A stretch of DNA of 64,000 nt from a virus. Shown one piece after another: positions 13,152 through 14,972 of the stretch. The position numbers were made by a program, and so were the translations under genes. Each line of letters starts with the position of its first letter. Positions within the stretch are counted from its first letter, which is position 1. The DNA lies in IMG/VR virus record IMGVR_UViG_3300044734_000006, positions 15,088 to 79,087 of that record. The stretch is one strand, 5' to 3'. Under the pieces are notes generated by a model. It was not told the origin of the DNA. It searched no databases and saw only the letters and a list, made by a program, of their open reading frames with translations.

Positions 13152-13364
13152 CGGCCGCGACGGCCCCGTGTCCGGAGCCTCCGCAACCTGCGCCCGATCC
13201 GGGTATGGGGACGCTCCGGCGGTCGTCTGAGAACGCCTGCGGTGTAGCGGAGCACGCAGAGGACGCCGAGGACCAGCAGCGCGAGGACGGCGAGGTGGAA
13301 GGCGGTCATCCCCTCAGCATGGCGAGGCAGGGTGTCGCGCCCATGTAACGGATGGCACAGGGGG

Positions 13365-13393
13365 TTGCGGAGTACCTAGTAGCTAGGTATACT
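13365..13393 (+). promoter_or_regulatory. Rightward early promoter with operator
   Basis: TTGCGG-17-TATACT; TACCTAG-n3-CTAGGTA at 13373-13389. Confidence 0.8.
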
Positions 13394-13426
13394 CTAGTCA
13401 TCAGCCAGCCCGCAGGAGACACCGAG

Positions 13427-13627
13427 ATGAGCACCACCACCAAGACCGCCACACCCCGGCCGCGCATCTTCAACTGCCCCGGATCGGGCCAGCGGTGGAC
13501 CGACGAGTACAACCACGACCTCGCCGCACGAGGCGTCATCACCACGACGGAGGCTATCTGCCACCACTGCGGCGACCACCAGTCGGTCAAGCGCGATGGC
13601 ACCTTCTACCGGCATCGCACTCCCTGA
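13427..13627 (+). CDS. Small Zn-finger protein
   Basis: SD AGGAG; CPGSG...CHHC...H. Confidence 0.7.
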   Translation: MSTTTKTATPRPRIFNCPGSGQRWTDEYNHDLAARGVITTTEAICHHCGDHQSVKRDGTFYRHRTP

Positions 13628-13636
13628 CCCTACCCC

Positions 13637-13696
13637 TCCCGTCGCGGGAAGCCTCCCGCCTGAAGGAGAGCCGGACAGCTACCGGCCGAAACGGGA
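13637..13696 (+). ncRNA. Hammerhead ribozyme, type III, with a 1-nt core insertion
   Basis: Stem III UCCCGU/ACGGGA; GUC cleavage triplet (cut after 13643); stem I GCGGGA/UCCCGC; core CUGAAGGA; stem II G(A)GCCGG/CCGGCC; then GAAA; loop-loop AGC/GCU complementarity. Confidence 0.75.
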
Positions 13697-13703
13697 ACAC
13701 GAA

Positions 13704-13868
13704 ATGGACACCGAGATCACCCGTCGCTGCCTCGCCTGCGGAGCCAGCCACACCCGTCTCGGCCTCTGCCCCGGCTGCGAGCGCAAGGCCGAGGAGTACG
13801 CCGTAGGCAGTATCGCCCCGCGCATCCTCGCTGGAATGAGGCGCGAGCGCACGGAGAAGCGAGGATGA
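13704..13868 (+). CDS. Small C4 Zn-finger protein
   Basis: CLAC...CPGC; SD GGGA lies in hammerhead stem III. Confidence 0.65.
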   Translation: MDTEITRRCLACGASHTRLGLCPGCERKAEEYAVGSIAPRILAGMRRERTEKRG

Positions 13869-13987
13869 TGATCATGATTCTGCTGAGCCTCGTGTTGCTG
13901 TCGATGCTGACGGGGCAGCCGTGGTTCCTGCTGGGGCTAGGACTGCTGTATCTAGTGGTGGCACTGCGGATAGTGGGCGCGAAATGA
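13865..13987 (+). CDS. 40-aa membrane peptide
   Basis: MMIMILLSLVLLSMLTGQPWFLLGLGLLYLVVALRIVGAK; ATGA overlaps at both ends. Confidence 0.6.
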   Translation: MMIMILLSLVLLSMLTGQPWFLLGLGLLYLVVALRIVGAK

Positions 13988-14064
13988 GCACCAAGATCAC
14001 GCTGCTGGTGAGCGCCACCGTCCTCGGGTTTTCCGCAGAGGGACGGCGCTGGCGGCGCCGGTAA
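13984..14064 (+). CDS. 26-aa leader ORF running through the twister
   Basis: MSTKITLLVSATVLGFSAEGRRWRRR; ATGA-coupled; its TAA is the predicted twister cleavage site. Confidence 0.45.
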   Translation: MSTKITLLVSATVLGFSAEGRRWRRR

Positions 14065-14104
14065 TGCGCAAGTTCCGGTCCCAAGCCCGGGCGCAAAGGA
14101 GGAT
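14020..14104 (+). ncRNA. Twister ribozyme, type P5
   Basis: GCA-GAGGG; P1 CGGCGC/GCGCCG; U^AA (14062/14063); P2 UGC(G)/(C)GCA; T2 GC; P4/L4 CCGGUCCCAAGCCCGG, matching the O. sativa twister P4/L4 as recalled; P5 GUCCUC/GAGGAU. Confidence 0.8.
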
Positions 14105-14110
14105 CCACCG

Positions 14111-14374
14111 ATGACCGACATCGCCAGGAACGACGCCGTATGGGTGCGACGCACCGAGCCACAACCGTGCTCCTACTGGTTGACCATCGGCGAGCGTCAG
14201 TGGGCCGTCCTGCCCGAGATCGGCGGACATGGCTGGGAGGTGTGTGTCTACGAGCACGACGGCGTGGAGTTCGTAAATGACGCAGCGACGGTCGCCGAGG
14301 GTAAGCGCATCGCTGAACGGGATGCGACTCGGGCGGCAAGAGTGGACGCTGCGCGGATGAGCACAACCCGATGA
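14111..14374 (+). CDS. Hypothetical protein
   Basis: SD AAGGAGG overlaps twister P5. Confidence 0.7.
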   Translation: MTDIARNDAVWVRRTEPQPCSYWLTIGERQWAVLPEIGGHGWEVCVYEHDGVEFVNDAATVAEGKRIAERDATRAARVDAARMSTTR

Positions 14375-14414
14375 CCTTCCCAAGTCTCGGGGAAGCCACA
14401 AGGAGGAACGACCG

Positions 14415-14972
14415 ATGACCGACATCACGGCGACCCGCGGGCTGCCGAAACTCCACCCGCAGATGTACTCCTACCCGGTAGACCACTACCGGATGCTCGC
14501 TGCCCAGCCCGACCGCCTTGACCTCAACCCGCCCTACCAGCGTGGCTCGGTGTGGGGTGTGGAGCGCAAGCGCAACCTCATCAAGTCGTTGCTCATGGGC
14601 CTGCCGGTTGGCGCGGTGTTCCTCAACAGTCGACACATCATGCAGCCCGACAGGGTGGTGGACGGCAAGCAGCGCATCGAGGCCATCCTCGACTTCCTTG
14701 GCGATCGGCTCGCGGTGCCCGCCGTATGGTTCTCCGAGGACGATCTGACTGAGGCGACAGCAGGGCAGTGGGGCAGCGGGAACCTTACCACGGACATGGT
14801 GTCGTACTCCGATCTGACCCTTCCCGTGCAGCGTCGGTTCAACGATTCCACCGTCGCCACATACCAGACCAAGCTCCGCACCGAGGCCGAGGAGCGCGAA
14901 CTGTTCCTGCTCATCAACTACGGCGGGGTGGCGCAGGGCGATATGGACGCCGATGCGGGGGACGGGCGATGA
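14415..14972 (+). CDS. Stand-alone DUF262 (GmrS/ParB-fold) protein
   Basis: PPYQRGSVW, LIKSLLMGLPVG, VVDGKQR, ELFLLIN. Confidence 0.9.
   Translation: MTDITATRGLPKLHPQMYSYPVDHYRMLAAQPDRLDLNPPYQRGSVWGVERKRNLIKSLLMGLPVGAVFLNSRHIMQPDRVVDGKQRIEAILDFLGDRLAVPAVWFSEDDLTEATAGQWGSGNLTTDMVSYSDLTLPVQRRFNDSTVATYQTKLRTEAEERELFLLINYGGVAQGDMDADAGDGR

Follow-up and report, generated by a model that had tools for sequence, protein, structure and literature searches.

The window analyzed here is a 64,000-nucleotide stretch of a 79-kb uncultured IMG/VR viral contig, rated 72% complete, and it contains two self-cleaving ribozyme motifs, a type III hammerhead and a type P5 twister, in gene junctions of a run of small genes on the plus strand. 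Our comparison with related phages suggests that both ribozymes are probably processing and insulating sites in a mosaic operon of small phage genes. As far as the compared sequences tell, the conserved feature is the position of the ribozyme between the stop codon of one gene and the ribosome-binding site (RBS) of the next, and not a pairing with the Shine-Dalgarno (SD) sequence. The run of small genes starts near 13350-13430 and ends at about 15500, and neither terminator-like sites nor internal plus-strand promoters were found between 13350 and 15500. As both ribozymes lie in junctions of one co-oriented block with no terminator or promoter found between them, the proposal of an earlier note on this DNA that self-cleavage may segment the mRNA is a reasonable reading, which has also been published (PMC3088659, PMC6765202).

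The DUF262 gene downstream of the twister was used as an anchor for finding syntenic viral contigs. Two such contigs, L002 and L003, encode DUF262 proteins with 96% and 75% identity, respectively, to that of the window, and both ribozymes are present there at the same places. Soil metagenomes also contain the DNA of the window, which comes from an uncultured soil phage. The hammerhead is made up of the following elements, the parts below the first line having been read from the sequence:

13637-13696, plus strand: type III hammerhead ribozyme (covariance model R1, 73.4 bits, E 2e-20)
13637-13642 and 13691-13696, plus strand: stem III, UCCCGU paired with ACGGGA
13643, plus strand: C17 of the cleavage site GUC, with the cut predicted between C13643 and G13644
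13644-13659, plus strand: stem I, GCGGGA paired with UCCCGC
13660-13667, plus strand: core of 8 nucleotides (nt), CUGAAGGA (CUGA-AG-GA)
13668-13687, plus strand: stem II, G(A)GCCGG paired with CCGGCC
13688-13691, plus strand: GAAA box

Every part of this hammerhead that had been named in the earlier note was found in its place, and both predicted cut positions, C13643 in the hammerhead and U14062 in the twister, agree with the alignments. The predicted hammerhead cut lies 10 nt 3' of the upstream stop and 60 nt 5' of the next ATG (13704). Stems I and II are capped by loops and stem III is open. All three stems pair without mismatch in the R1 alignment, the pairs A13691-U13642 and G13668-C13687 are present, and A13669 is bulged after G10.1, a bulge that is found in most of the hammerhead family. 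The columns of GAAA, A15.1-U16.1, G10.1-C11.1, and the cleavable H17 are invariant in the 30 distinct family members.

The family was collected in two ways. A text pattern made of the window's stem I and core yielded 10 viral and 34 metagenome loci, nearly all of which complete a hammerhead with differing stems II and III; a pattern anchored on stem II matched only L002 and L003. Six cleanly aligned hammerheads, none of them from the window's clade, were used as seeds of the covariance model R1. MAFFT misaligned the cores of members with a 1-nt N7, and the remaining sequences were realigned by Infernal instead. The R1 search returned 48 copies (30 distinct), many of which had not been picked by the text pattern, and the window element was the sole match of the model across the entire contig, window included. 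Some matches to the stem I and core pattern (L009/L024/L051, L030, and L052) were set aside as not being type III; L009 reads as a type II hammerhead with an open stem II, and L009, L024, and L051 carry this type II permutation with the same stem I. The match at L043, which is located within coding DNA, apparently arose by chance.

Among the 30 distinct members, 94.8% of the cells are paired, compared to 72.5% in shuffles and at most 49% with slid partners. Changes on both sides that retain pairing affect 12 of the 17 pairs, covariation is strong in each of the three stems, and the score for covariation is 0.46 in comparison to 0.10 in shuffles. Loop I and loop II covary as well: AGC at 13650-13652 is complementary to GCU at 13678-13680 in the window, and the family shows the combinations AGC:GCU, ACU:AGU, AAGU:ACUU, and GUC:GAC (p<0.0002 by cross-locus permutation, p 0.0008 by within-loop shuffling). 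Loop-loop tertiary contacts are known to stabilize active hammerheads (Perreault et al., PMC3088659). When the window was aligned with L002 and L003, the hammerhead was almost invariant and the surrounding coding DNA was unrelated. A coding explanation was also considered, as an open frame runs from 13596 through the hammerhead in phase with the 13704 gene. It was rejected because the frame differs in L003, its start lacks an SD and lies inside the upstream gene, and the substitutions are compensatory for RNA helices and not synonymous. By these comparisons, the window hammerhead is a genuine self-cleaving ribozyme motif.

The Rfam hammerhead models did not match at the gathering threshold, or at E<=10 when 1.1 kb or the whole contig was searched. 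Only a 96-nt scan gave an end-to-end alignment to RF00008 (Hammerhead_3, clan CL00010), with 24.1 bits in comparison to a gathering cut-off of 48.5. Of the two Rfam models named in the earlier note, twister-P5 matched and Hammerhead_3 stayed below its cut-off. The window hammerhead is missed by Rfam because its core comprises 8 nt instead of 7. As the hammerheads of L004 and L005, which have canonical cores, also fall below the Rfam gathering cut-off, the low score reflects the model, and RF00008 is a poor judge of this phage lineage.

The additional core base deserves attention, as it enlarges the standard 7-base CUGANGA box to 8 bases and is an insertion of a documented low-activity type (PMC3088659). 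A natural insertion after A6, termed "A6a", has been assayed in vitro in one case, in which the activity was low (PMC3088659, section 8, Figure 5). The core box reads CUGA-AG-GA (CUGAAGGA) in the window, CUGA-AC-GA (CUGAACGA) in L002, and canonical CUGAAGA in L003, and the soil contigs have CUGACGA and CUGAACGA. Over the 30 distinct members, we counted 22 canonical cores, 6 with CUGAACGA, and 1 with CUGAAGGA, which means that an 8-nt core is present in 7 of 30, in addition to the soil contigs. All variation in core length is confined to the A6/N7 site, the sole unconstrained site of the core. As the 8-nt copies differ from one another by compensatory changes, the evidence suggests that the A6a core is tolerated or tuned and not dead.

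The second ribozyme and the start region that follows it are as follows:

14034-14090, plus strand: twister, type P5 (Rfam RF02684, clan CL00120, 59 bits with a gathering cut-off of 37.6, E 1e-9)
14034-14037 and 14065-14068, plus strand: twister P2; P1 is closed
14075-14090, plus strand: twister P4 hairpin
14096-14113, plus strand: SD AAGGAGGA (14096-14103), spacer, and ATG 14111 of an 87-amino-acid (aa) gene

The P5 twister of the earlier note was thus recovered at full length: the match covers model positions 1-58 of 58 with zero non-standard pairs flagged, and no Rfam family other than Twister-P5 exceeds its curated cut-off anywhere in the 64 kb. The cut is predicted at U14062|A14063 from the conserved UAA in the consensus alignment, 35 nt 5' of the next SD. 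The syntenic copies in L002 and L003 score 49.6 and 54.4 bits against RF02684, and they carry compensatory changes, with P4 changing from CCGG/CCGG to CGAG/CUCG in L002 and a G-C pair of P1 to A-U in L003. The SD, the spacer, and the ATGA after the twister are kept in both. We consider the window twister, like the hammerhead, to be a genuine self-cleaving ribozyme motif. As a side aspect, the flanking CCGUCCU (14018-14024) can pair with GGGACGG of the twister (14040-14046), and the competing fold, which is a nested-fold prediction only, would disrupt P1.

The position of the ribozymes relative to the flanking genes recurs in other phages. In 16 of 18 other phage twisters, the stop codon of the upstream ORF directly adjoins the core (-2 to +6 nt), and the next SD follows P4 by 5-22 nt in 17 of 20. 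Hammerheads are mostly found 10-47 nt after the upstream stop, often behind a strong hairpin, and just before an SD. Such a hairpin, GGGGCUUCGGCCCC, stands directly 5' of hammerhead stem III in L004, L006, L029, and L032, where it might shield the upstream product of cleavage at its 3' end; this hairpin is absent from the window. Entire arrays of ribozymes exist, with five twisters within 1.4 kb in L019 (4174-5621, plus strand) and four hammerheads within 1 kb in L029 (2363-3394, minus strand), in both cases one per small-gene junction. Other combinations are a pistol ribozyme about 1.1 kb downstream of a hammerhead family member in L010 (7821-7886, minus strand), and, in L006 (1025-1089, minus strand), a type II hammerhead that precedes a type III hammerhead by about 0.55 kb.

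The genes that surround the two ribozymes in the window were taken from the list of open reading frames (ORFs) unless stated otherwise:

13427-13627, plus strand: upstream small gene, 66 aa, no Pfam match
13704-13868, plus strand: cargo gene 1, 54-aa zinc-ribbon-like protein
13865-13987, plus strand: cargo gene 2, 40-aa hydrophobic membrane-like peptide, no Pfam match
13984-14064, plus strand: possible 26-aa ORF, seen in the sequence, of uncertain status as a real gene
14111-14374, plus strand: 87-aa gene after the twister, no Pfam match
14378-14417, plus strand: relic half-twister (3' half of an L002-type twister with SD and ATG), leader of the DUF262 gene
14415-14972, plus strand: GmrSD_N/DUF262-family gene, 185 aa (Pfam PF03235, E 6.6e-15)

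The TGA stop of the 66-aa gene is located 9-10 nt 5' of hammerhead stem III. The best that Pfam offers for the 54-aa protein is DZR_2, with an E of 5e-4 that is under the cut-off, and the 40-aa peptide gene overlaps the stop of the 54-aa gene. The 26-aa ORF is joined to the 40-aa peptide gene by an ATGA overlap, and its UAA stop is the twister cut site, so that cleavage of the twister would strip it of its stop codon. This arrangement may be incidental because the upstream ORFs of the other phage twisters end so regularly next to the core. A distant-mode blastn search with 13300-14500 gave zero matches among GenBank phages, and the 87-aa and 54-aa proteins found zero relatives when used as queries against the viral contigs.

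On all sides of the two ribozymes, the cargo varies. When the window is compared with L002 and L003, the three contigs have different genes upstream of the hammerhead, between it and the twister, and downstream of the twister. The ATG that follows the hammerhead opens unrelated genes of 112 aa in L002 and 93 aa in L003, as compared to 54 aa in the window, and the gene after the twister, with 93-94 aa in L002 and L003, is unrelated to the window's 87-aa gene. The first small genes of the three contigs likewise share only their MST(T/A)T start and otherwise show no relationship. The region upstream of this first gene is conserved (window 13350-13440, L002 1875-1950, L003 1821-1930) and encodes …ISQPAG(D/A)TE in one frame, followed by MST(T/A)T; together with this start, it appears to be another conserved start module before swapped cargo.

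A relic documents one such exchange. The stretch at 14378-14417 is identical in 40 of 41 bases to the 3' end of the L002 twister with its RBS; its 5' half and the P4 pairing are gone, and Rfam gave no match there. Soil contigs join 14067/14070 to 14378. The 14111 and 14415 genes both begin with ATGACCGACATC, so that the SD-ATGACCGACATC unit is duplicated, and this shared start suggests that recombination at the twister/RBS module brought in the 87-aa gene. Taken together, the differing cargo, the relic, and the shared ATGACCGACATC start indicate that cassettes are exchanged at ribozyme/RBS modules.

The earlier note had gone further and claimed that each ribozyme masks the RBS of the next gene, with the anti-SD strand on the 5' cleavage product. 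At the twister, two strands are concerned:

14020-14025, plus strand: GUCCUC, proposed 5' strand of P5 (anti-SD), present in the window and not conserved
14099-14104, plus strand: GAGGAU, proposed 3' strand of P5, which forms a helix of 6 base pairs (bp) with GUCCUC

This helix does cover the SD, and its partner strand does lie 5' of the cut, but the pairing is at chance level. L002 and L003 have no equivalent, as the sequence 5' of their twisters differs, and 68-80% of shuffles match or beat the duplex energy of the twister flanks of the window, L002, and L003. With a looser core pattern, we obtained about 21 distinct phage P5-type twisters, among which no flank pairing beyond that of shuffles was found (0.09-0.99 of shuffles do as well). 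For 17 twisters whose SD is clear, we determined the longest helix that the SD can form with the 5' flank of 40 nt; its mean length was 4.0 bp, in comparison to 4.03 bp for cross-locus pairs (permutation p 0.72). Furthermore, soil contigs part from the window exactly at 14032, the 5' edge of the twister, which places the proposed anti-SD strand outside the conserved unit. A P5 stem is optional in type-P5 twisters. It is also not included in the Rfam model RF02684. We therefore prefer to attribute the GUCCUC/GAGGAU helix of the window to chance.

At the hammerhead, the SD that had been assigned to stem III consists only of GGGA, a 4-nt match with one wobble, and ATG 13704, which is located 7 nt after stem III, has no canonical SD before it. 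In about 23 of the 30 distinct hammerheads, the SD is canonical (AAGGAG or AGGAGG) and begins 2-17 nt beyond stem III, the start codon being located 14-30 nt beyond the stem, and an SD within stem III is thus not a family trait. In L035 and L042, the SD abuts stem III. Nested-fold estimates, which are crude and ignore tertiary structure, predicted no gain in SD accessibility after cleavage, the unpaired probability at the twister being 0.63 for the precursor as compared to 0.50 for the 3' product, and the accessibility at the hammerhead 0.53 before and 0.60 after cleavage. In related phages, the SD pairing is conserved at neither ribozyme, and our literature search did not retrieve any description of phage ribozymes that naturally unmask an RBS. 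SD hiding is evidently not part of the conserved ribozyme design.

For these reasons, a cleavage-activated translation switch, in which the SD or start region would be held in stem III or P5 and freed as the partner strand leaves with the 5' product, is an unlikely role for the two elements. The geometry at the window twister is right for it, and the arrangement at the hammerhead also has features in its favor: in the window, L002, and L003, the ATG follows stem III by 8-9 nt with no other, canonical SD, stem III would occupy positions -13 to -8 and amounts to about -10 kcal/mol as a free duplex, and L035 and L042 have their SD directly beside it. Against a switch speak the absence of the P5 helix from L002 and L003, the 21 twisters that do no better than shuffles, the break of the soil contigs at the twister edge, the SD outside stem III in most hammerheads, the poor match of GGGA, and folds that show no unmasking. 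After the twister cut, P2, P5, and the pseudoknots would probably still hold the products together.

The start without an SD is nevertheless a peculiarity of the window's clade. The ATG after stem III opens unrelated genes in the window, L002, and L003, soil contigs diverge at or just after it, and at least five unrelated cargo genes begin there in this clade. Melting of stem III after the cut could matter for such a start. One may speculate that the hammerhead, an A-rich spacer of 8-9 nt, and the ATG form a portable SD-less start module whose translation depends on the ribozyme, and we consider this doubtful. With stem III cut and melted, positions -16 to -1 would then form an unstructured leader, rich in A, that follows two hairpins. 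A recent report (PMC13725137) describes ribozyme-assisted translation initiation in fungal and plant RNA viruses. If it were true, the SD-less hammerhead-ATG module would be a bacterial counterpart of that initiation, and the ribozyme-dependent start a new mode of bacterial translation initiation.

Our preferred reading, processing combined with insulation, can be outlined as follows. The ribozymes would cut a polycistronic RNA at the gene junctions into gene-length pieces, and the downstream pieces would each have a 5'-OH end and, directly ahead of the start region, a fixed and structured leader formed by hammerhead stems I and II or by twister P4. Regardless of the gene located upstream, the start region would then be unchanged, and the downstream gene would be uncoupled from the upstream cargo; cutting may also change the stability of the RNA. 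Such context independence is the effect that engineered ribozyme insulators are designed to give. The insulation reading fits because genes are swapped among the related phages and the ribozyme-plus-start modules stay. Cleavage in vivo, a shared single transcript, and an insulating or stabilizing effect are what we infer from the sequences. Some aspects weigh against this reading. The window hammerhead has the core of the low-activity A6a variant (PMC3088659) and may be slow or weak, and the window twister is an outlier among the phage twisters in not being flush with a clear upstream stop, as it is preceded either by a 46-nt gap or by the 26-aa ORF running into the ribozyme. In addition, the R1 seeds were found via the window's own stem I and core, which confines the independent support from R1 to stems II and III, the GAAA box, and the matches found by the model only.

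The first of these aspects can be extended to the view that the hammerhead is decaying or very slow and that the twister alone is active, the 8-nt core and the bulged stem II reflecting lost function. The low in vitro activity of the A6 insertion (PMC3088659) and the Rfam score of 24 as compared to 48.5 bits would agree with this. However, the 8-nt core is shared by 7 of 30 distinct members and the soil contigs, compensatory changes in stems II and III and the loop-loop contact point to selection for the fold, members with canonical cores fail Rfam as well, and most of the family has the G10.1 bulge. We therefore regard decay as rather unlikely; a slow or decaying hammerhead is in any case compatible with processing and insulation and does not exclude it. 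It is improbable that the modules matter mainly as patches of DNA homology for cassette exchange with RNA cleavage being incidental, even though cargo differs on every side, breakpoints coincide with module edges, and the half-twister relic before the DUF262 gene and the duplicated SD-ATGACCGACATC testify to recombination. Compensatory changes in all helices and the tertiary contact indicate selection on the RNA fold in addition to any on DNA identity, and the occurrence of three unrelated ribozyme classes at the same type of junction points to a need for cleavage (an argument of PMC6765202). It is more plausible that recombination at the ribozyme sites follows from the conservation of these sites.

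Circularization is the least probable of the alternatives and, in our view, very improbable. The two cuts would free a 419-nt RNA (13644-14062), which a host ligase of the RtcB type could convert into a stable circular mRNA with two small genes. The cargo is indeed bracketed by exactly two ribozymes. Ribozyme products have 5'-OH and 2',3'-cyclic phosphate ends, which suit RtcB. Circular or spliced products had been raised as a possibility in PMC3088659, but Perreault et al. sought them and found none (PMC3088659), and other phages carry long ribozyme arrays rather than pairs. RtcB (PF01139) was not found in the 79-kb contig, which at about 72% completeness does not prove its absence from the phage, and the ligase that the phage does have is of the ATP-dependent Rnl type. 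Rnl-type ligases need 3'-OH and 5'-phosphate ends and do not join raw ribozyme products. The gene of this ATP-dependent RNA ligase (PF09414, E 6e-17; L056) is located upstream of the window on the minus strand of the contig (G000, 12813-13499), where it adjoins a gene for a VirD4/TraG-like coupling protein; no link between the ligase and the ribozymes is shown.

Why phages put self-cleaving ribozymes between small genes has been a question since 2011, which this locus narrows and does not answer. Variable prophage genes are known to be flanked by hammerheads, for which a role in the processing of long transcripts has been proposed (Perreault et al. 2011, PMC3088659). A 2019 review repeats this proposal and notes that ribozymes of the twister and hammerhead classes have gene contexts in common, a shared context that is unexplained, with the function undetermined (PMC6765202). 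The two ribozyme classes have already been published, and so have their joint occurrence and their location around variable genes of phages. What the present comparison contributes is a negative result on SD masking, which is not conserved in two syntenic relatives, 17-21 twisters, and 30 hammerheads, together with a conserved stop-to-RBS position around swapped cargo that points to processing and context insulation. Further by-products are the documented half-twister relic and the recurrence, under structural selection, of the A6a core that had been known from one low-activity example. As this core recurs under selection, strict descriptor and Rfam searches undercount such hammerheads.

With two plus-strand ribozymes 0.4 kb apart and cargo that is unrelated in L002 and L003, the locus is a ribozyme-punctuated operon. 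It resembles the clusters of Perreault et al. 2011 in its co-oriented ribozymes at phage small-gene junctions, the variable genes that they flank, the loop-loop pseudoknots, and the proposed role in processing into gene-length mRNAs. It differs from these clusters in that the pair is of mixed class, the hammerhead has a rare extra base after A6, and a dead half-twister and exact breakpoints document cassette exchange. Apart from its one extra base between CUGA and G8-A9, the window core is of the consensus type, like the published A6a variant (PMC3088659); unlike that single low-activity case, the variant occurs here in 7 of 30 distinct members with compensatory changes. The twister agrees with type-P5 twisters (RF02684; Roth et al. 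2014, as cited in PMC6765202) in P1, P2, P4, and the conserved loop bases, as far as that account describes them, and in a genomic neighborhood that is shared with hammerheads. Unlike them, the phage copies analyzed here lack a conserved P5 stem that closes the termini, and the chain comes in behind the stop codon of the preceding gene and runs out in the direction of the next SD.

Engineered devices provide a last comparison. They include hammerhead switches that sequester the RBS and ribozyme insulators that are placed upstream of it. The window elements share with such devices a self-cleaving ribozyme directly 5' of the RBS, whose cut would remove the variable upstream RNA. Unlike RBS-unmasking switches, they have neither a conserved pairing with the SD nor a ligand-sensing domain. 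As pairing to the SD is not conserved, the natural elements resemble the design of an insulator and not that of an RBS-unmasking switch.

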